Below are positions 1 through 10,957 of a stretch of 64,000 nucleotides of DNA, one piece after another. The stretch is taken from IMG/VR virus record IMGVR_UViG_3300034356_001764, positions 1 to 64,000 of that record. The stretch is one strand, 5' to 3'. The number at the start of each line of letters is the position of its first letter. The stretch's first letter is position 1. Under the pieces are notes generated by a model, which saw only the letters and a list, made by a program, of their open reading frames with translations, was not told where the DNA came from and did no database searches. This DNA comes from a virus. The position numbers and the translations under genes were made by a program.

Positions 1-3000
1 GTGTACTATGTGTTAGTTCAAATCTACCGTTACCTTCCATACCAAATGTGTAAATACTACCATTTTTTGTAAGTACTTCATTTGTATAACCTTTTAATTT
101 ATCACCAGAAGGAAGATATATAGTATTATAATCGTTAGCAAAAGTCATTCTTCCTTCATTATTATCTACAATACCTAATCCAGAATCATTACCAATTGTA
201 TACACTATTACAGGATAATTTCTTGCTGTTATACTTTCTGTTGTATCTTTATGTGGATATACATATTGATTATCAAGATATATGTTTCCAATTACAGAAT
301 CATAATCTGACATGTCAATACCTAATGAATTTTGAATTTTATCTATTATAGGTTGTAATACACTAATAGAAGGTAATTGATTTCCTTTTTGATCTAAACT
401 ATGATAATTATAATAGTTATTATTAACCCCTTCAAATTTTTGAATTTTAACAGGATTAGCTTTAGGATTATTTCTTGCCCACATTAAACCATAATGAAAC
501 ATTTCATTTGCAAAAGTACCTTTATTTTCTTTATATGTTTGAGCTTGTATTTGTGGTTTTATTAATTCTACAAAATTTTGTGTTTCTTCTTTACTAGGAT
601 TAGTTTCAGCTTGTACAACACCATAATCTTCTGATATTACTTTAACATTAGTAGATGGTTGAGTAGTAATTAATTTATCAAAGTTTTCATGAAACACAAT
701 ATTATTTGGTATAGGTCCCGCAGCAATAAACATATCTGCCATTTCTTGACCTGTATAACCATTAAGATTAGTTCCAGAATAGTCTGATACTAAAAATTCT
801 TTATAACCTCTATTAGCTAAATCATAAAGCTTTTTGATACTAGAAATAATTTGCTCAGGTGATATAGATTTTAAACTGTTATTTTCTTTAACTCTTAAAT
901 CTTTAGTAGGTAAAGCATAACTTTGTCCTTGCAAACCTTCTCCCTGCCCATACATAGCTCCAAAATTATCTTTTGCATATTTAGCAGCACCAGCACCATG
1001 TCTTCCTTCAGGATTACTTCCAAATACAAATATTTGATTAGGTGCCAACTTAGTTACTTTTCCAGAGTATGTTTTTCTAGTAGTAGGTTCAACACTAGTA
1101 GATGATTGAGTAGTTCTTAATTGTTCTACTACTTCAGCTAATGCTGTAGGATGCATACCCTGACCTCTAGCTTCAGATTTACCAGCATATAGTAATGTAA
1201 CTCCATCAAGTTTACCTTGATTAATCTGATCAAGTATCCAGTTTCTTTGTTGTGGTTTTACGTCTTTATGATTAGTTCCTAACAACCATTCTTTATAAGC
1301 TACAACCGCTGCACCTATACTAGGAACTTTTATTGTACCCCCATAACCAGCTTCACTAAAAGGATTACCAAAGTTTTCAAAAGCATTAGTATTACTTGTT
1401 CTCATAGTATTAACACCTTCTGCAGTGTAAACTGGTCTTGACTCTAAATCACCTTTCCATTGTCTTGATGTATCTATTGTAGGTTTAACACTAGTAGCTG
1501 GTTGAGTAGAAGCTTCTTCAGCACTCTGAGCCTTAGCAAGCATGTCTTCAATCATTGGAGTATTAGCATCCATGATTACTTCTTCTTCTACAGGTTGAGC
1601 AACTGGCTTAGGAGCTATGTATGTCTTAGGATCTCTTACAAAATTAGTAAAGTCTCTATTAGGTGAATCAAGCATTAACTCAAAGATGTTTCCAAGAGTA
1701 TTCTCATTTAACTGTTTCTCCATGAATAGTTTTGAAGCAGATTGCATTACACCTAAGAATTCATTATAAGGAAGTGCTTCATTGAAACCATACTTACTGT
1801 ATCCTATACCATGTTGATACATGCTCATTATAGGGAGCAGGCCAAAAAGCTTACTGATTCTTTTGTTATCTGTAGGGTCTGTAACTTTCTTTACATTTTC
1901 ATCAGCCAAGTCTTTCAGATTTTCAAAGTAAATCTCTGCTAACTGAGGATCTTTCAACATTGCTTTATCATTCAAAGTTAAAACTCTTTCTCCAGTCTTA
2001 ATGTTTGGTATAGTAAGCTGACTCAAGATTGGGTATCTTCCTTTAAGTTGAGAGAATTCTTCTATCATATCCAAGACCATGTCTGTATATGATTGACCCT
2101 CAATACCCATAATTGCTTTTCTATTGAATGCATTAATTAATGCTCTTTGATTTATGTAAGCTTCATAAGCTTCTTTATCATTGGCAGTTAACTCACGCAT
2201 TTTTTTGAAGTCTTTGTTTTCTAATACAGACTCAAGTGAATATAAATTTCTTTGATTCTCTCTTTCAAACACATATCTAAAATAGGCAGCTTCTGATTCA
2301 AATATTGCTGAAGTTCCAAACCCTCTTAATCCACTTTCAGAATAATTGCCGGGCATAGTATTATTCCTGTAATACAAACCTTCTTGATATTCTTTTCTAA
2401 GCTTTGCCTCATCTACAAACAATTTCCCATCAATGATCTCTGCACCATTCTTTACTCCAACTTTACTGACAACATCCATCTTATTAAAGTTCTTAGGCAT
2501 ACTTGTTAGTTGGCCATTCTCATCAACAAAGTTGGACATATAGTTTTGGAAGATATAATTTGGAATAGCATTTTTGAACTGAGTAATAAAATTTCTTGTT
2601 CCGTCCTGACCTTTTCCAAATCTTTTTGCAACTGCACCAGCTCTTTCAGTACTTGTTTTCAAGATAAAGTTAGTTACAGTATCATTATTTCTAAGTGGAA
2701 ACAATGGAACAATAAGATCACTGATTAATCTATTGTCAAAGAAAGTACCAAGTACAGTTTCTTTTAATTTATCTACTGTGCCTTCTTCAATCTTAGACAT
2801 TTGTTTAGCATCTTCCAATGACATGTTTCTTCTTATTACTTCTTGTAAAGTTTTAGAAGTCTTAGTATCTGGATTAGATAAGAACTTAAGTGTAGTAAAC
2901 CCGCGGCTAGATTTTTCTAGCTCAATAAAATGAAGGAACATTGCTTCCATATGATTTCTCAAAGCGGGTTCATTTGGATTCTTAATGATTTTTCTCATTA

Positions 3001-6000
3001 GTTCAATATCAAACTCACCTTTAGAATTTAAAATACCTGAAGCACCTGTTGCTTTAGTAACAGCATTATAATATTTTTTCTGACTTACTTTCTGTGCCCC
3101 ATCTTTAATACCAAACTTTGCTAAAGCATTTACTGCTGCCTGGTATTTACCCATGGTTGCTATAAAATCTTCTTCAATTGTTCCTGTAACTTTTGAGTAT
3201 GCACCCTTAATTATTCTTTGTTGTTTTGCATACTCTCTAACAATTGGATTTGACGCAAATAGAATTGCAGTTTCTTTAGGTACACCGGCTTTTAGTAAGA
3301 AAGTAATCATTGGAGTGATCTCATAATTACCTTGAATAAAGAATATCCATGCATCTTTCTCAACATCCACAGCACCATTCATCATTTGTGAAAATAATTC
3401 ACCAATGTTATCCATACCGTCTACAGTATCTGTACCTGAAAGAGAAACTCTACCATCTTGAGTTTTGTTATGAGGCAACATTAGTCTTACATCATAATCA
3501 TTTTTTCCATCAACATATCTTCCAAGACTTTGATCAAACACTGAATCTTTATATGTTGCTGGCATGGATATACCTATTGAATTAAAGATTGGATGTAATG
3601 CATTTTCTACAGCAATCATACCCAACACTCTCTTAGCAATCGTGTTTACATCATGTTTGTGTAAGTTGTAACCTACCTCAAGAATTCTTGTTGGGCTAAT
3701 CACTTTAGCACCTTTCTGATTAACTCTATATTCCTTACTATTCACATTCTTAAATCTGTTATACTCAATAACATCATCTTGAATTACATCAGCTATTTCA
3801 TCTTTTAATAAGTATGTATCATTTGGTCTTACTAATGATGCATAATTATCTGGCAACTCAAGAATACCTTTAATTGTATTGATTAATCTGTTTTCTAAAG
3901 CTGCTTTCTGTTTCTTAATTAAAGCTCTGGCAACTTTACTTCCTCTTTCATTTCCAGATAATTCATTTACTTTTTTAAGAACTTCATCATTAGTCAATCC
4001 TGTTTCAACATATTGACCATTACTATCTATGCTAGGCATAAATGTTGTCAACTTATCAACATCATAATCAGCTCCTGATTTAGCAACAATTTCTGATGGT
4101 GGAATAATAATATTTCCTGCTGCTGGATCTAAGAACTCATAGATTTCCATGAACTCCATTGAGTTAATACCCTGAACTGGGATACGTACTGCAGATATTG
4201 TTACTGCTTTACGGTTATTATTCAAGTCCAACCACTTGTCATCCTTAATCATTTCATTAAGTCTTTCTCTTGTTGCAATAGGTTGACCGTCTAAGTGGTT
4301 AAGTTTAAGCAAGTTAGCAAAGTCTCCTTGAAGTGCAACAGCAACTTTCATTGCTGCCGTCTTACCATCAGCTGTATCATTATTATAGAAAGGTAAATTA
4401 TTAGTACCCATGTACTTTAATATATCTGCCTTAGTAGCTTTCTTAAGTTTGCTATCCCACATTCCATTGGACATAGAACTAGCAACTTGAACTAATGCTT
4501 CACCTTTTACTTTTTGTTTTATTAATCTTTTTTCTACAAGAGAAACAAGAATCTTTTCAATATCATCAGCTTTAAGGTGCAGAGACAAATCTGTTTTAAT
4601 AGATTTATCTCTATTGAGCCCTACCATTTGTATCAAATGCTCAGGAAGATCTCTTCTTTCAAGTTCTCTTTGAACAACATCTAAGAAGTCTTGTATGTTT
4701 CCAGTATACTTACCAGTCTTTGGATTATACTCATATCCAATTTCATGAAGTAATTCAAGCTTTAGAATATTACTATAAGCATCAACGGCAGCTTCATATG
4801 ATTTTACTGCAACTGAGTTTTTAGGATTGATAATTTTACCATTTCTGTACATACCTCCCAAGATCAACTTTCTTAACTGAGTTGAGAACACAGTTTTGTT
4901 TTTAAACTTGTTAGGTACATTAGTTACATTCTTAAGATTCTCAAGGTAAATAACATTTGGTGTAAATGCAATATCTCTTTTTAAAGACTTTTGATCTTTA
5001 TCATCATAAATCTTATCTGCTACTGCTTCACCTTTATCATTTACTTCAGATGTAACACTACCAAGCTTTGAACCAGTTTGGAATGTAACATACTGAATAT
5101 TCTTAGTCATCATTTGTCTATGAAGATTTTCAAGATCTGAACCAGCAATAACACTAGGGATTAATGGAGCTAATGCAAACTTGTGCATTGCATTTACTGG
5201 AAGACCAGTATTGGCTAAGTTACCAAAGTTTTGTACTTTGTATACAGGGAAGAATTCTTTTATCTCACTTGTAGTTACATTGTCTCCTTTAGCAATTCTC
5301 TGAAATAATATTTCTTGCTCATTAGACCAAGCATTTTCAAGATGTCTTAGTGTCCGGTATGCATCAAAAGTGATAAAGCCTTGCCCATCTCCTTCTTCCA
5401 TTCCTTTATACTTACTAAGTTCTATCTCTAATCTTTTATTAATTATCTTTTCAGCATTTGGAATTCCTGCATTTTTATATCTTGCTTCATAGTCTTTTCT
5501 AAGTCCCTTTTCAATTTGACCAAGATATTCTGAATCTCTAATTACATCTTGAATAATTGCAGTATTGAAAGTTCCATTGTAAGCAATTGCAGAAATGCCT
5601 TGTTTTTTAGCATAAGATGTAGTGGCTAAGTAACCATTAACAAATTTTCTTGCTGCTATGTCAGATCTAAATCCAGGGCCCCCAGATGTAGCTCCAGTAT
5701 TTCTCTTGTGCATCTCTTCTTTGTAGTGATTGTATTGAGCAAAGTCACCATAGAAAAGAATACCCATTTCAAAGTTATGTATCCAAGAATTATAAGTATA
5801 AGCTTCAACAAGCTTTTGTTCTACTTGATCATCTGATAGATTAAATATTTTCATTCTATCTTTAAGATCTTGAGAAATATATTTTGATTCCTGAAGCATC
5901 TCAAGATTTTCTTTAGCTTGTCTGTCAAAGTATTTCTTTACATCTCCTCTTAATACACCAAGTGCACCTGTAGTGTCTGCTTTTAGAAATGTACTTAAGT

Positions 6001-9000
6001 TAAATAGAGTCTTATTCTTAACTGCAGAGTCAATAGCATCATAGATTTGTTTCTTTAGTGAATCTGAGATAACATCATCAAAGGCTGTAAATTCTTCACC
6101 TGCCATTCTTCCACTACTGAGCACTCTATTATAGCCAGCATATTTCTTAAACTCATCTTTGTTAATCTTGAATCTGTAGATTCTTTCAGCCTCTGCTTCC
6201 ATGTAAGGAAGTAAATGAGCCTTTAATGCATAATCAAATGCAGTTCCTTTACCAAACATGTCAAGGTCAACCCAAAGTTTATTATCTCCACCTTCTTTAC
6301 CTGGTAGACCAATAACTCCTCCTTCAATTCTAGCACCAAAAGACGAAGACTTAGAAGCATGTCTCATAAATTCTTGCACACCATCTTTTAACATAGTATG
6401 CATTTCCTGAATCATCTTACCATTTACATCTAAACTTGTTGTGTTAAATCCATCTTCATTCTCAACTTGAGTTCCAGAGTTTGCAAATAATAAAAATGAT
6501 CTTGTTGTTCTTCTTGATTGCTCAGGAGACTTCAAGTCATACAATGATCTGATTATACCTAATCTATTTGTGTAAGAGTTAATAGCAGGGTCCATATAAG
6601 ACATATACTTAAACTCATCACTGGTCCAAAGATCAGAAAGTTTCTTTGCATTATTTAATGCATATACTTGTTTGCTAATTGTATGATTGTCAATAAATTC
6701 AGAGACAAGATTCTTTTCAGCATTAAGCACCATAGAATTAGATGTTCTAGTACCATATCTTGCTTCAAGACTTGCAATTGCAATTACTTTATTTTTCTGT
6801 ACAATTTCTGTAGCACCAATAATATTAGCAGGAATTCCTTTTGATAAAACTTCAATTGGGTTTTCTCTAAAATTACTAATCAAACTTCTTACAGTACTAC
6901 TAGTATTTGGAAGTTGTTCTTTCTCATGCAATTTTTTGATGATCTCAAAAATATATGGAAGACCAAACTCTTCAATTGTTTTGTTATCTTTCTTAAGTGT
7001 ATTTTTGATAATACTTAAATCACTCAAGTTGAATCCAATAGCTCTTGCAAAAGCATATGATTGATTTACATCTAACTTACCTTGAGATGAAAAACTATCA
7101 ACTACTTTTCCAAGATTAAGCATTGGTGTATTATCTCTACCAACTCTTTCTACATATGGATTATACTGATTTGCTCTGAAGTTTTCTCTAAACATTCTTA
7201 CAATGTTCCCAACTTCATTAGAAGCTTCAGTTACTTGTGCATCATAATCATAAACAGGAACTGTTTTCTCTTCTCTAGTGAATTGATTGTACTCAATTTT
7301 CTCACCCGTCTGATTCTTAAACACAGTAAGCTGAATATAAGGTACTCTAGTTTTACTAAAGTCTTGCCAGAAAGATGTTGTTGCTTGAAATTCAAATGCA
7401 TTATTAGTAAATACAGTTGGGTTAGCAAGCTTTGACTGCACAAGTTGTTTAAACTCTGGTACAGTTTCACTTTCTTGCATGAGCTTATCATACATTTGCT
7501 GTGGATCCTGAATGCTGCCAATTGCTCTTACTGTATTATTCCAAGTACTTCTAAAATCAGCAAGCTTCTTAAATCCTAATTCATTGTATTCATACTCTAC
7601 TTGACCCGTCTTCTTATTAATCTTTGCTTGATACAAACTTTTTAGAATGTAAAGAGTTTCCTTACCAGCTAATTGAATAAGTGACTTATCATTATTTTTT
7701 TGATCCCCAAATCTTTCAGTATCAGCCGCATTCTCAGGCTCAACAAGATTTCCTTCTTCATCTAATTCTAATGCAGTATACTTTTGTCTTACAAGGTCAT
7801 AAGAACTATTCTCCACATGGTATTGTACAAGTCCGGATTTTGTGTCCCCATAGTTTTCAAGACCAGTTTGTATAATCCTAATTCTGTTTTGTAGTATGTC
7901 CCTTTTATATTCATTCTCTTCATTCTCAGGAGTTTCCTCCAATTGTGTTTCATAACCCTTTAACTTCTCTTCTAGATTTTGCTTAATCATATTATAAAGA
8001 GGCTCACGGTTTCTTTTATCCAAAAGAATACTTAATGTTGCTCCCTTATTATCTCTTTTACTTACTTCATTATCAATGATACCAGAGATAATAGAATCCA
8101 TACTATCTTTCAATAAGTTGGAATCTTGTCTATTTAATACTTGATCTGTCTCAGTACCTGGTTTAACTATACCACTGTTTCTATAGAGCAAGTCAAACAT
8201 AACATTGTCTATAAGTGGTGTGTAGTTATTCAGATTCTTACCTAAATATAAATTATCAAATAATTCTTTTACTGTACTTATCTCAGATAGATTTGTAACT
8301 GAACCTTTTCCAAATAATGCTTTTAAGAAATCAAGTATTTTTCTAAAAAGACTATTTCTTTTTGGTGCATCTTTTACTGTCTTTTGATTCTTTGCATAAT
8401 CTCTAAACTCCTCAGCAAGTAATTCTTCAATTTCAAAGAAGCTTAAGCTTTTACCTGTTCTTCTAAGTACTTCATTGTATAGAGCCTTCTTTTCAGCTTT
8501 AGTGAGATATAACTGAGAGAAACCATGCCAAGCTTCATGATAAACATCAACCATATTTCCAGTAGCTGCAACTTCAATCATACCTAGGTTGCCATTTAAT
8601 GCAGCACCATAAGCAATAAATCTTGCATAAGCATTAGAGTTAACAATGTTTGCTACTTGTTTAAGTCCAATGTGTTTATTTAATGGAGAGTTTGCCCACC
8701 ATTGTTTAGCATCTTCTACCTGCTCAGTAGATACATCAGATGGAAGGTCTCCTTTTCTTAGGAAGAATACATCACCGGCCCCATTGCTTTCTGGAGTTGG
8801 AACATTCTTTGGATCAATATAACTGTTAATCTCATTCTGAACTTCTTCAATTGATTTAGCTTTAGTTACTTGAGGAGCAAATGCTTTATCAAATTCCTTC
8901 TGAATGATTTCCATCTCAGTTTTACTTGGGCTTCTGAAAGTTGAATAAAGATCAAGCACCTCTTGCATGGTTTCTTTTGTAAACCGTCCAGCATTATTTT

Positions 9001-10957
9001 TTAACTGGTTAGTTAAATAAGTTGACATGTAGTAATTATCCTTGTGAGTCTTACCTGTCTCTTGATCAACAACCGTTTTCCATCCTCTTGCCTCTGTTGA
9101 AATGGCTTCTTTCATTAGATTGTTGAACATCTCCTCTCCTGGAGTAAGACTTTCATCCATCATAGACTCAAAGAAGTCATCTTTATTAACTGTTTCAGTT
9201 GACTCTTGAGCTTTTGCTAGTTGTTCTGTGAACTGATTTGGTAAAGCAAAACCCATGTAACTGTTAAATGATCTACTGTTAATAGATATATCTGCAAAGA
9301 TTTTAGTATTGGGAAGCCCTTTAATTAAAGCAAAGTAATCTTGGTAATCATCTGACAATGTGTTAGTTGCCACATCATAATCTTGATAACCTTTCTCTAT
9401 TGCTTCATCACTATAAGTCATTTTGGCCGCATAGTACTTACCATCTTTTCCTGAAGCATTTGTTAATGCATCAGTAATTTGTTGAAATGCTTCTGGTGAG
9501 TTAAGATCTACTGGTTCAAACTCACTATATCCTTCAGCAAAAGTTGTTAGAGAATATGAGAACATTAGTTTATCTGTTTTCTCTAAATAAACTAAATCAT
9601 GCTTTCTTGTATCATTTGATGCCTTGTCAGCCAAGAACTGAGATACATAACCATACTTCTCTTTGTTTGTTAAATTTTTGTTGGTCAAAACAGAAGCAAT
9701 CTTTTTAGTAAGTTCTGCAGTTAAGTTTGGACGGTCAACTTCATATTCAACACCTTTGATTGTAATTACACCTACTCCTTTTTCAAAACCAGAACGTGGA
9801 GATTTAACAACAGATAATGTTCTTATGGCATGATCATTATCTTCTAGTATAATACTGATATTAGATAAGTTTAATGCATTTGGTTTAATCTCACTAATCC
9901 CCTCGCTAACACCAACTATGTCTACTAAAGGTGACTCACCTTTAATAAGCTTTTCTCTAAACTCATAGAGCTCTTTAAATTCATCCTGTTGTCTTTCTTG
10001 TGCTTCTTCTAATGTGATACCTGATTTCTCAGCTAGAATAGCAGGGTCTATAATTTGTTCTGACCTTCCGTAGATATCTGTAACCTTAAACTTATTCCCA
10101 TCCTTTCTAACCTCTCTTAAGAATTGATAAACAAGTCGGCCACCTTCAGCAACTATATCTCCTTGTTCATTAAACTGTAATGGAATACCATCTTTATCAG
10201 AGATAACCATTAGAAATATATTATCTGGTGTTGTTACATAGTCTTGTGCTTTACCTGATCCCTTCAAATAAGCTGCTCTAGTGACCAATCTCTTTGTTGT
10301 CTTATCTAATAGATTCTCATCTACTTCAGATAACCTTACAGGCTTTAACTTAAGTATAGTATCTTGATATACAAGTTCTCTTAATGGAGTATTGTTATTT
10401 GCTTCTTCTCTAATTGCTGCAAGAGTAGAATAAATTGTTCTTCTTCCTGGATCAAAAGTTTCTGTTTGAATATCTTCATTAGGACTCTTAGAAATAAATT
10501 CCTGAAATGTAGTTGACAAAGATGAATATGTCTGATAGTTAAAGGGATCAGCAGGAACTGTATCACTAGTTTTCTCAGCAATATGAAATGCTTTTAATGC
10601 TTTCTTTTCAATAAGTTCTTTCTCAACATCCGGATCTAGCTGTGGTCTAAAAAATTTAATAGTATTATCAATACCATTCTCAGACTTCTTAAACTTTTTA
10701 ATAAGTGGTTTTAATGAGTCTGTTTTAATTTCAAAGTCTTCCAGAGCTGGACGGAAAGATGCAGTTCCAATCATAGATGGAACTTGTTGCATAAACTTAG
10801 CTGCAGTATCTACATCAGAGTTTTTTGCAATCTTATTGAACAAATCCTTCATGTATTGCTCAGGATTGAACGCGTCTCCTTGTTCAACCATGTTTCCATA
10901 CACATTAGAATATAATTTTTTAATCTGAGATTCAGATAAAGCACATTGTATTTTCAT
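1..10957 (-). CDS. Giant virion-packaged DNA-dependent RNA polymerase polyprotein (crAss-like, phi14:2 gp66-type) with zincin domain and C-terminal accessory cassettes; 3' end outside window
   Basis: Not in the ORF track. ATG at 10957 (MKIQCALSESQIKKLY...). Manual translation of large parts finds these motifs in the same frame: zincin HEAWH...EELLAEEF (~8405-8545), EGDGQGFITFD (~5365-5395), RIPVQG...SGADYDVDKL catalytic DxDxD (4055-4069). The frame is still open at position 2. Not every codon was checked. Confidence 0.9.
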   Translation of the reverse strand, partial: MKIQCALSESQIKKLYSNVYGNMVEQGDAFNPEQYMKDLFNKIAKNSDVDTAAKFMQQVPSMIGTASFRPALEDFEIKTDSLKPLIKKFKKSENGIDNTIKFFRPQLDPDVEKELIEKKALKAFHIAEKTSDTVPADPFNYQTYSSLSTTFQEFISKSPNEDIQTETFDPGRRTIYSTLAAIREEANNNTPLRELVYQDTILKLKPVRLSEVDENLLDKTTKRLVTRAAYLKGSGKAQDYVTTPDNIFLMVISDKDGIPLQFNEQGDIVAEGGRLVYQFLREVRKDGNKFKVTDIYGRSEQIIDPAILAEKSGITLEEAQERQQDEFKELYEFREKLIKGESPLVDIVGVSEGISEIKPNALNLSNISIILEDNDHAIRTLSVVKSPRSGFEKGVGVITIKGVEYEVDRPNLTAELTKKIASVLTNKNLTNKEKYGYVSQFLADKASNDTRKHDLVYLEKTDKLMFSYSLTTFAEGYSEFEPVDLNSPEAFQQITDALTNASGKDGKYYAAKMTYSDEAIEKGYQDYDVATNTLSDDYQDYFALIKGLPNTKIFADISINSRSFNSYMGFALPNQFTEQLAKAQESTETVNKDDFFESMMDESLTPGEEMFNNLMKEAISTEARGWKTVVDQETGKTHKDNYYMSTYLTNQLKNNAGRFTKETMQEVLDLYSTFRSPSKTEMEIIQKEFDKAFAPQVTKAKSIEEVQNEINSYIDPKNVPTPESNGAGDVFFLRKGDLPSDVSTEQVEDAKQWWANSPLNKHIGLKQVANIVNSNAYARFIAYGAALNGNLGMIEVAATGNMVDVYHEAWHGFSQLYLTKAEKKALYNEVLRRTGKSLSFFEIEELLAEEFRDYAKNQKTVKDAPKRNSLFRKILDFLKALFGKGSVTNLSEISTVKELFDNLYLGKNLNNYTPLIDNVMFDLLYRNSGIVKPGTETDQVLNRQDSNLLKDSMDSIISGIIDNEVSKRDNKGATLSILLDKRNREPLYNMIKQNLEEKLKGYETQLEETPENEENEYKRDILQNRIRIIQTGLENYGDTKSGLVQYHVENSSYDLVRQKYTALELDEEGNLVEPENAADTERFGDQKNNDKSLIQLAGKETLYILKSLYQAKINKKTGQVEYEYNELGFKKLADFRSTWNNTVRAIGSIQDPQQMYDKLMQESETVPEFKQLVQSKLANPTVFTNNAFEFQATTSFWQDFSKTRVPYIQLTVFKNQTGEKIEYNQFTREEKTVPVYDYDAQVTEASNEVGNIVRMFRENFRANQYNPYVERVGRDNTPMLNLGKVVDSFSSQGKLDVNQSYAFARAIGFNLSDLSIIKNTLKKDNKTIEEFGLPYIFEIIKKLHEKEQLPNTSSTVRSLISNFRENPIEVLSKGIPANIIGATEIVQKNKVIAIASLEARYGTRTSNSMVLNAEKNLVSEFIDNHTISKQVYALNNAKKLSDLWTSDEFKYMSYMDPAINSYTNRLGIIRSLYDLKSPEQSRRTTRSFLLFANSGTQVENEDGFNTTSLDVNGKMIQEMHTMLKDGVQEFMRHASKSSSFGARIEGGVIGLPGKEGGDNKLWVDLDMFGKGTAFDYALKAHLLPYMEAEAERIYRFKINKDEFKKYAGYNRVLSSGRMAGEEFTAFDDVISDSLKKQIYDAIDSAVKNKTLFNLSTFLKADTTGALGVLRGDVKKYFDRQAKENLEMLQESKYISQDLKDRMKIFNLSDDQVEQKLVEAYTYNSWIHNFEMGILFYGDFAQYNHYKEEMHKRNTGATSGGPGFRSDIAARKFVNGYLATTSYAKKQGISAIAYNGTFNTAIIQDVIRDSEYLGQIEKGLRKDYEARYKNAGIPNAEKIINKRLEIELSKYKGMEEGDGQGFITFDAYRTLRHLENAWSNEQEILFQRIAKGDNVTTSEIKEFFPVYKVQNFGNLANTGLPVNAMHKFALAPLIPSVIAGSDLENLHRQMMTKNIQYVTFQTGSKLGSVTSEVNDKGEAVADKIYDDKDQKSLKRDIAFTPNVIYLENLKNVTNVPNKFKNKTVFSTQLRKLILGGMYRNGKIINPKNSVAVKSYEAAVDAYSNILKLELLHEIGYEYNPKTGKYTGNIQDFLDVVQRELERRDLPEHLIQMVGLNRDKSIKTDLSLHLKADDIEKILVSLVEKRLIKQKVKGEALVQVASSMSNGMWDSKLKKATKADILKYMGTNNLPFYNNDTADGKTAAMKVAVALQGDFANLLKLNHLDGQPIATRERLNEMIKDDKWLDLNNNRKAVTISAVRIPVQGINSMEFMEIYEFLDPAAGNIIIPPSEIVAKSGADYDVDKLTTFMPSIDSNGQYVETGLTNDEVLKKVNELSGNERGSKVARALIKKQKAALENRLINTIKGILELPDNYASLVRPNDTYLLKDEIADVIQDDVIEYNRFKNVNSKEYRVNQKGAKVISPTRILEVGYNLHKHDVNTIAKRVLGMIAVENALHPIFNSIGISMPATYKDSVFDQSLGRYVDGKNDYDVRLMLPHNKTQDGRVSLSGTDTVDGMDNIGELFSQMMNGAVDVEKDAWIFFIQGNYEITPMITFLLKAGVPKETAILFASNPIVREYAKQQRIIKGAYSKVTGTIEEDFIATMGKYQAAVNALAKFGIKDGAQKVSQKKYYNAVTKATGASGILNSKGEFDIELMRKIIKNPNEPALRNHMEAMFLHFIELEKSSRGFTTLKFLSNPDTKTSKTLQEVIRRNMSLEDAKQMSKIEEGTVDKLKETVLGTFFDNRLISDLIVPLFPLRNNDTVTNFILKTSTERAGAVAKRFGKGQDGTRNFITQFKNAIPNYIFQNYMSNFVDENGQLTSMPKNFNKMDVVSKVGVKNGAEIIDGKLFVDEAKLRKEYQEGLYYRNNTMPGNYSESGLRGFGTSAIFESEAAYFRYVFERENQRNLYSLESVLENKDFKKMRELTANDKEAYEAYINQRALINAFNRKAIMGIEGQSYTDMVLDMIEEFSQLKGRYPILSQLTIPNIKTGERVLTLNDKAMLKDPQLAEIYFENLKDLADENVKKVTDPTDNKRISKLFGLLPIMSMYQHGIGYSKYGFNEALPYNEFLGVMQSASKLFMEKQLNENTLGNIFELMLDSPNRDFTNFVRDPKTYIAPKPVAQPVEEEVIMDANTPMIEDMLAKAQSAEEASTQPATSVKPTIDTSRQWKGDLESRPVYTAEGVNTMRTSNTNAFENFGNPFSEAGYGGTIKVPSIGAAVVAYKEWLLGTNHKDVKPQQRNWILDQINQGKLDGVTLLYAGKSEARGQGMHPTALAEVVEQLRTTQSSTSVEPTTRKTYSGKVTKLAPNQIFVFGSNPEGRHGAGAAKYAKDNFGAMYGQGEGLQGQSYALPTKDLRVKENNSLKSISPEQIISSIKKLYDLANRGYKEFLVSDYSGTNLNGYTGQEMADMFIAAGPIPNNIVFHENFDKLITTQPSTNVKVISEDYGVVQAETNPSKEETQNFVELIKPQIQAQTYKENKGTFANEMFHYGLMWARNNPKANPVKIQKFEGVNNNYYNYHSLDQKGNQLPSISVLQPIIDKIQNSLGIDMSDYDSVIGNIYLDNQYVYPHKDTTESITARNYPVIVYTIGNDSGLGIVDNNEGRMTFANDYNTIYLPSGDKLKGYTNEVLTKNGSIYTFGMEGNGRFELTHST
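644..667 (-). repeat. 24-nt in-frame linker repeat copy 3 (TTQPSTNV)
   Basis: ACTACTCAACCATCTACTAATGTT on the minus strand, 23/24 match to the consensus of three copies. Confidence 0.9.
1091..1114 (-). repeat. 24-nt in-frame linker repeat copy 2 (TTQSSTSV)
   Basis: ACTACTCAATCATCTACTAGTGTT on the minus strand, 23/24 match to consensus. Confidence 0.9.
1487..1510 (-). repeat. 24-nt in-frame linker repeat copy 1 (STQPATSV)
   Basis: TCTACTCAACCAGCTACTAGTGTT on the minus strand, 22/24 match to consensus. Confidence 0.9.

Follow-up and report, generated by a model that had tools for sequence, protein, structure and literature searches.

In this study, we identified an AlkB-type iron dioxygenase domain joined in frame to a giant protein that, judged by homology, is a crAss-like virion RNA polymerase (RNAP). 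The stretch analyzed, hereafter the window, comprises the first 64,000 nucleotides (nt) of the IMG/VR virus record IMGVR_UViG_3300034356_001764. crAss-like phages rank among the most abundant Bacteroidota viruses. To our knowledge, the roles of giant crAss virion proteins beyond transcription are largely unknown, with approximately 1,600 residues of gp66, the RNAP of Cellulophaga phage phi14:2, having no assigned function. The domain lies at the end of a minus-strand open reading frame (ORF) of at least 3652 amino acids (aa) that starts at position 10957 and has met no stop codon by base 2. Since base 1 of the window is also base 1 of the record, which is linear, 80,203 bp long, and judged 68% complete, the truncation of the ORF is an assembly effect rather than a biological one; following the idea of a permuted contig, the missing C-terminus of the module was sought elsewhere in the 80-kb record and was not found. 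The 3′ end of the giant ORF, a 214-aa open frame at 2–643 on the minus strand (P0001), contains the strings YDSVIGNIYLDNQYVYPHKDTTE, PVIVYTIG, GSIYTFG, and RFELTHST, and it ends in GRFELTHST, two residues past the candidate distal histidine. An earlier note on this DNA had quoted these strings when proposing an AlkB-like cassette at positions 1–643; all of them are present, and invariant motifs, a sub-threshold Pfam match, and a confident AlphaFold2 fold bear the proposal out. The segment is confirmed as a genuine, cut-off AlkB-type iron dioxygenase domain with a well-supported fold.

Two IMG/VR contigs, L003 (82% identity) and L004 (74%), carry copies of the module that run past the break in the window. 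The AlphaFold2 model of the L003 domain reached a predicted local distance difference test (pLDDT) score of 83.7 and a predicted template modeling (pTM) score of 0.87, and it displays the double-stranded beta-helix core that the earlier note had expected, together with an N-terminal nucleotide-recognition lid. In structural comparisons with the PDB, the best matches were AlkB and ALKBH1, followed by ALKBH2, ALKBH3, and ALKBH5, which are nucleic-acid enzymes, and the best 50 matches listed in both comparisons were all AlkB or ALKBH proteins. The viral structure library BFVD returned only AlkB/2-oxoglutarate (2OG) oxygenases of giant viruses, uncultured phages, and RNA-virus polyproteins, at identities of 17% or less, and 26 of the 30 nearest neighbors in a protein atlas were PF13532 clusters. 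The Pfam family 2OG-FeII_Oxy_2 (PF13532) matched the window fragment over profile positions 52–156 of 194 (E=8.1e-5, 23.4 bits; curated gathering cut-off 31.2 bits), and a genome-wide scan located such a match at a single site in the record. PHROGs and NCBIfam yielded no model matching the module. The NxY motif, the HxD motif, and the distal histidine are invariant across 150–170 family members, which indicates that the resemblance to AlkB is not due to chance, and a ratio of nonsynonymous to synonymous substitution rates (dN/dS) of approximately 0.25 relative to L003 and L004 shows that purifying selection acts on the module.

The earlier note had named TET/JBP enzymes beside 2OG-FeII_Oxy_2 as families for comparison. 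Phages do encode base-modifying dioxygenases, and a TET/JBP-like hydroxylase would build a hypermodified base in the phage DNA. However, no TET/JBP entry occurs among the best 50 matches listed in either PDB comparison, an absence from the listing that does not exclude the family, and a single-copy enzyme delivered by the virion would be poorly placed to modify replicating DNA. We consider a TET/JBP-like role extremely improbable.

Active-site positions were counted in an alignment of 180 domain sequences from an exhaustive profile search. The hhalign register places N120, Y122, H131, and D133 of the module on the identically numbered AlkB residues, and Y78 and Y80 on AlkB Tyr76 and Tyr78. At the C-terminal end, the structural alignments keep a constant offset of 35, pairing R245 with AlkB Arg210 and T239 with Arg204; this register is confirmed because 58 family members have R239 within YRITLTFRR, the canonical RxxxxxR. 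In AlkB, His131, Asp133, and His187 bind iron, and Arg204 forms a salt bridge with the C5 carboxylate of 2OG (PMC7467159). Arg210 is a hallmark of the family, Asp135 favors positively charged bases, and the flipped base is stacked by Trp69 and His131 and hydrogen-bonded by Tyr78, Asp135, and Glu136 (PMC8508711); Trp69 and Tyr76 contact 1-methyladenine (PMC2553587). Across approximately 160–169 domains, N120, Y122, H131, D133, E136, R207, R245, and R246 are invariant, and the equivalents of Tyr76, Tyr78, and Glu136, which contact the base in AlkB, are invariant in the family. The iron pattern N-x-Y...H-x-D...H that had been read from the letters is present in the window as N120/Y122, H131/D133, and H212 (Table 1), and the metal site is intact. 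The 2OG C1 contacts are also of the AlkB type: the Arg210 equivalent, R245, would lie past the point where the contig cuts the window's copy and is present in L003, L004, and all 159 domains that reach it.

The lid residues bear on a further alternative, namely that the module is a protein hydroxylase or demethylase of the ALKBH4 or ALKBH7 type, with either a host protein or the polymerase itself as its target. Some AlkB homologues have protein substrates. Injected polyvalent proteins also often modify host proteins (PMC5512222). Nevertheless, the structural matches described above are led by nucleic-acid enzymes, and the base-contacting lid tyrosines and the Glu136 equivalent are invariant, making a protein substrate very unlikely.

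Two contacts have changed in the subclade to which the window belongs. An RxxxxxR motif had been expected outside the window, and relatives do continue there as THSTP, approximately 25 aa, and YTITLTFRR; only the second arginine of the motif is found. All 102 members of the subclade, the 82% and 74% relatives among them, have Thr at position 239, the equivalent of Arg204, and 58 more distant members have Arg there, from which it follows that the window's lineage lost the arginine; the contig of the window ends before this position. The T/R split covaries perfectly with G/N at position 206. At position 135, where AlkB has its base-selecting Asp, the subclade has Thr or Ser, and 48 other members have Asp. 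Judged from the alignment, the metal site and the base-flipping lid appear to have been kept, with one cofactor contact and one substrate-selectivity contact altered. Given both substitutions (D135T and R204T), the preferred lesion is probably not a cationic base such as 1-methyladenine or 3-methylcytosine (1mA/3mC), and the loss of Arg204 implies that 2OG is held differently or that another co-substrate is used. Basic residues are enriched in the T239 group at position 220 (K/R in 93% vs 15%) and position 141 (R/K in 77% vs 10%), and these could be the better candidates to stand in for the lost arginine. R207, which is invariant in both subgroups, gave no clean answer as a compensator, and neither did H-[KR]-D, in which K/R132 is merely enriched (90% vs 47%).

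It is also conceivable that losing the Arg204 equivalent abolishes 2OG binding, leaving either an enzyme that uses another co-substrate or a module that only binds nucleic acid for the polymerase. The salt bridge made by Arg204 in AlkB (PMC7467159) and the strict partition at position 239, with its perfect covariation at position 206, are in keeping with such a change. However, the iron triad, N120, Y122, and the Arg210 equivalent are kept at a dN/dS of 0.25, features that a pseudoenzyme would be expected to lose, and the basic residues enriched in the T239 group could replace the missing arginine. A catalytically altered, non-2OG, or binding-only module is accordingly rated as quite unlikely.

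The fusion to an RNAP claimed in the earlier note is upheld by a crAss-like virion RNAP core in the same ORF. The giant ORF contains one DxDxD motif, DYDVD, and a tblastn search with residues 1850–2750 found matches in 104 crAss-like phage records. The core matched phi14:2 g066, annotated as "Catalytic RNA polymerase subunit" (E=1e-11, 23% identity over 461 aa), as well as the "putative RNA polymerase" of crAss001 and proteins of Flavobacterium phages. A phmmer search of the whole giant ORF against the PDB did not reach gp66. A crAss-type portal, large terminase (TerL), and major head protein are encoded in the same window. Virions contain gp66, which is translocated along with the DNA, carries out early-gene transcription, and shows strong activity on single-stranded DNA (ssDNA) (bioRxiv 10.1101/2020.03.07.982082); by homology, the RNAP of the window would be packaged and translocated in the same way. 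The two proteins share the homologous core and the DxDxD motif, whereas gp66 has 2180 residues and lacks the C-terminal enzymatic cassettes. A zincin-type HExxH motif, HEAWHG, was additionally observed at window positions 8522–8539 (minus strand; aa 807–812 of the giant ORF), without a Pfam or PHROG match, and could be relevant to polyprotein processing.

Fusion of this module to RNAPs recurs well beyond the window. A word-indexed search found 54 relatives, many of them free-standing proteins of approximately 263 aa at approximately 60% identity, and a 29-sequence alignment (A1) was very well conserved. A profile search of 1.84 billion representative proteins gave 207 matches at E<=1e-3 and did not reach canonical AlkBs, which identifies the family as a discrete, divergent clade of approximately 207 clusters. 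Most of these matches are in proteins of 3000–6187 aa, in which the module usually lies near the C-terminus and sometimes at the N-terminus or internally. An RNAP core detectable by BLAST is present in the same chain in 56 of the 78 representatives of at least 1000 aa, and most of the remaining large representatives show a mid-protein DxDxD-like motif. Likewise, the module shares an ORF with the RNAP core in 22 of 25 IMG/VR loci. Judged by its sequence, the family appears to be a previously undescribed, phage-only clade that recurs on crAss-like virion RNAPs and has, in one branch, lost one canonical cofactor-binding arginine. Contig L028 opens within the final 47 aa of an AlkB-like module (L028:2-142), after which come approximately 1940 aa with a weak RNAP-core match; this adds another example in which the module precedes the polymerase core. 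Six giant proteins (P0159, P0132, P0117, P0112, P0084, and P0105) have profile envelopes of 600–2000 aa in two stretches, which raises the possibility of two AlkB-like modules in some of the giant proteins.

Searches of other collections returned few copies. Three family members found no match by tblastn in 50,697 GenBank phage records, and a scan of 185,579 species genomes, which detects only copies containing both seed motifs, found only two short contigs from Legionellaceae metagenome-assembled genomes. These contigs, L032 and L033 (6.8 and 9.0 kb), carry free-standing homologues at approximately 45% identity, one of which adjoins a radical-SAM gene, and they represent either cellular genes or binned phage DNA. 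A free-standing 263-aa member was also observed at L010:7998-8789, on a 368,549-bp IMG/VR contig of jumbo-phage size, flanked by genes for phosphoribosyl pyrophosphate (PRPP) synthetase, a Thg1-like tRNA-His guanylyltransferase, CYTH, and the nucleotidase NT5C.

The module is also a mobile cassette. Its start coincides exactly with the start of the free-standing homologues, and three copies of a 35-nt repeat (641–675, 1088–1122, and 1484–1518), which are 80–86% identical and encode a ..T-Q-P/S-S/A-T-x-V.. linker, are placed one directly upstream of each of three C-terminal modules; it is plausible that this repeat serves as a recombination handle for cassette exchange. Compared with the window, L007 (the L003 contig) is 82% identical in the AlkB module and 23% in the RNAP core, whereas L021 is 47% identical in the module and 62% in the core. 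Such discordance indicates that the cassette moves between divergent crAss-like lineages. The reversal of the identity ranking relative to L007 was seen for both L021 and L030. Partner modules vary as well and include NADAR (L003 and L014), cpYpsA-SLOG (L021), and a superfamily 1 (SF1) helicase (L011). In the last case, at L011:8823-10619, the helicase (AAA_30, E=2.5e-22; UvrD_C_2) continues the frame after the AlkB-like module, and a weak NADAR match lies before the module. In the window, a DUF4326-like and then an A1S_2505-family module separate the RNAP core from the AlkB-like module. Homologues of this DUF4326-like module (Table 1), for which a Pfam search of 1079..1468 (minus strand) returned no match, occur before or after the AlkB module in L012, L013, L017, L031, L021, and L007. 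Among the 25 IMG/VR loci, no ORF with an AlkB-like module also showed the A1S_2505-family module, which does lie beside the AlkB-like module in several giant representatives (P0080, P0102, and P0151).

Table 1. Coordinates of the giant ORF, its modules, and active-site motifs in the window
Feature	Position	Strand	Description
Whole giant ORF	2..10957	-	N-terminal region, HExxH region, RNAP core, C-terminal cassette array
RNAP core	2708..5410	-	tblastn to crAss-like RNAPs; DYDVD at aa 2297-2301 (window 4055-4069)
DUF4326-like module	1079..1468	-	130 aa, GNPF...; lead only; atlas feature search, 29/30 nearest clusters DUF4326, scores 0.90-0.91
A1S_2505-family module (phrog_2072)	644..1078	-	NCBIfam NF049995 E=2.6e-30, 104.9 bits (cut-off 45); phrog_2072 E=1.1e-32
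Linker repeat (..TTQPSTNVK..)	641..675	-	Precedes the AlkB module
AlkB-fold dioxygenase module	2..643	-	aa 3439-3652; ~47 aa missing, including the final beta-strand with the Arg210-equivalent Arg
N120-x-Y122 (GNIY)	278..286	-	Equivalent to 2OG-contacting Asn120/Tyr122 of AlkB; 168/168 domains
H131-K-D133-T-T135-E136	236..253	-	Iron-binding HxD; Thr at the base-selecting Asp135 of AlkB; conserved Glu136; H, D, and E in 169/169 domains
Distal iron-binding His H212 in GRFELTHST	8..10	-	Equivalent to AlkB H187; His in 151/162 aligned domains

Taken as a whole, the module is probably an oxidative dealkylase of nucleic acids that is injected and whose contacts with substrate and cofactor are altered, a reading in which we place modest confidence and in which the substrate and role are inferred. 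The interpretation offered in the earlier note, an injected dealkylase or base-modifying enzyme tethered to the early transcription machine, is thus supported. The module is a self-contained, AlkB-fold cassette, predicted to be Fe(II)-dependent, corresponding to the free-standing 263-aa gene and joined in frame to the RNAP C-terminus by a short repeated linker. Because the homologous gp66 is packaged and translocated with the DNA, the module would be inside the cell from the outset of infection, where it would act by oxidation to take an alkyl- or methyl-type group off a flipped nucleobase, either in the ssDNA template or in nascent early RNA; AlkB itself prefers ssDNA (PMC8508711). The incoming genome would thereby be kept transcribable, much as is the case for AlkB domains in RNA-virus replicases, and the D135T and R204T changes would correspond to a non-classical substrate and altered 2OG binding.

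Several points weigh against this reading. The window fragment scores below the Pfam gathering cut-off, as do the full-length relatives and free-standing homologues, all of which fall between 20.5 and 27.0 bits. PDB sequence searches with the fragment, the full domain, and a 29-sequence profile gave no AlkB match, so that the link to AlkB rests on the fold, the motifs, and the sub-threshold Pfam matches; the hits that did appear, to RCC1 repeats (through GSIYTFG) and to an intimin, were spurious. Alignment by hhalign with the single E. coli AlkB sequence was weak (probability 0.5%, E=0.11), with the register right. The completeness of the copy in the window is deduced from its relatives, since its last ~47 aa would lie beyond the contig end. 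Asp135 has been lost, and the arginine that forms the salt bridge with the 2OG C5 carboxylate is Thr in the subclade, which leaves 2OG dependence unproven; Fe(II)/2OG-dependent dealkylation is a predicted activity. The module may stay attached to the polymerase, be cleaved off, given the HExxH region in the same protein, or refold after ejection. Finally, the co-occurring NADAR, SLOG, DUF4326-like, and A1S_2505 domains point to counter-defense as much as to damage repair.

The main rival reading, which the accompanying domains favor, is a counter-defense or host-takeover eraser that would remove host-installed base marks rather than chemical damage. Its targets would be the methyl marks that protect host DNA from the host's own restriction enzymes, or defense marks placed on phage DNA or RNA, and the injected module would belong to a set of exchangeable de-modification tools that the RNAP carries. 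NADAR, cpYpsA-SLOG, A1S_2505, and DUF4326-like partners fit this role, as such domains are tied to NAD/ADP-ribose and DNA-modification conflicts, and sporadic phage AlkB-like enzymes have been proposed to reset methyl marks and not to repair DNA (PMC7824862). Cassette exchange between divergent phages, evident from the discordance of L007 and L021, is typical of arms-race genes, and the Thr in place of Asp135 points to a neutral substrate, N6-methyladenine for example. However, no defense system that alkylates phage nucleic acid was linked to the module here, and the free-standing copy on the 368-kb contig, amid nucleotide and tRNA-repair genes (Thg1, PRPP synthetase, CYTH, and NT5C), is a better fit to repair. 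We judge the eraser role unlikely on balance. A broader scheme, which we offer tentatively and hold to be somewhat unlikely, is that the RNAP C-terminal cassettes (AlkB-like, NADAR, SLOG, DUF4326-like, A1S_2505, and helicase) would form a horizontally swappable de-modification toolkit that arrives in the cell on the first enzyme to transcribe and strips alkyl and ADP-ribosyl adducts, whether imposed by the host or of environmental origin, while the incoming template is transcribed. This would amount to transcription-coupled direct reversal as first-line counter-defense, with the T239 subclade having rewired its co-substrate binding.

The preferred reading, an injected dealkylase, has its closest precedent in the AlkB domains of RNA-virus replicase polyproteins. 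In plant RNA viruses (Flexiviridae and Closteroviridae) and other RNA viruses, a viral AlkB-type module is likewise in frame with the virus's own polymerase polyprotein and has spread by recombination (PMC2553587), and those of plant-virus replicases are established RNA-repair enzymes (PMC2553587, PMC544882). RNA-virus AlkB polyproteins are also among the BFVD structural matches of the module. In contrast, the RNA-virus domains belong to eukaryotic RNA viruses, retain the canonical HxDDE/RxNxTxR, and have shown 1mA/3mC RNA repair, whereas the carrier here is a DNA-dependent RNAP of a DNA-phage virion and the active site is derived. E. coli AlkB is a free-standing 216-aa enzyme with Arg204 and Asp135, both Thr in the window's subclade; the module of the window forms part of a chain of at least 3652 aa, and it differs from AlkB and from plant and animal ALKBH1 in being approximately 17% identical, below the Pfam threshold, and longer by approximately 45 residues in two insertions.

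The polyvalent proteins of phages and conjugative elements (Iyer et al. 2017) resemble the present protein in that they are large, injected, multidomain proteins stringing together swappable enzymatic cassettes, although the 2017 catalogue (PMC5512222) contained no AlkB, 2OG- and Fe(II)-dependent dioxygenase (2OGFeDO), or dioxygenase term. Phage NADAR, SLOG, Macro-like, and DUF4326 modules co-occur, as they do here, and DUF4326 is fused to Macro, SLOG, and NADAR (PMC7824862). The AlkB-like 2OGFeDO described in a few jumbo phages (Iyer et al. 2021, PMC7824862) differs in being free-standing. In a crAss genomics paper (PMC7886860), neither an oxygenase nor NADAR is mentioned for the RNAP, and a full-text search for literature joining crAss and AlkB found nothing relevant among open-licence papers and bioRxiv, such that an earlier description elsewhere is possible.

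A mobile and recurrent AlkB-type enzyme on an injected polymerase offers a concrete, assayable activity for part of the dark matter of crAss-like phages. It extends the theme of the polymerase-tethered AlkB from eukaryotic RNA viruses to DNA phages. The family also constitutes a natural experiment in 2OG-oxygenase chemistry, as one clade has replaced the canonical C5-carboxylate arginine and left all else in place. If the counter-defense role were true, nucleobase alkylation or methylation would be a battleground in the first minutes of infection.

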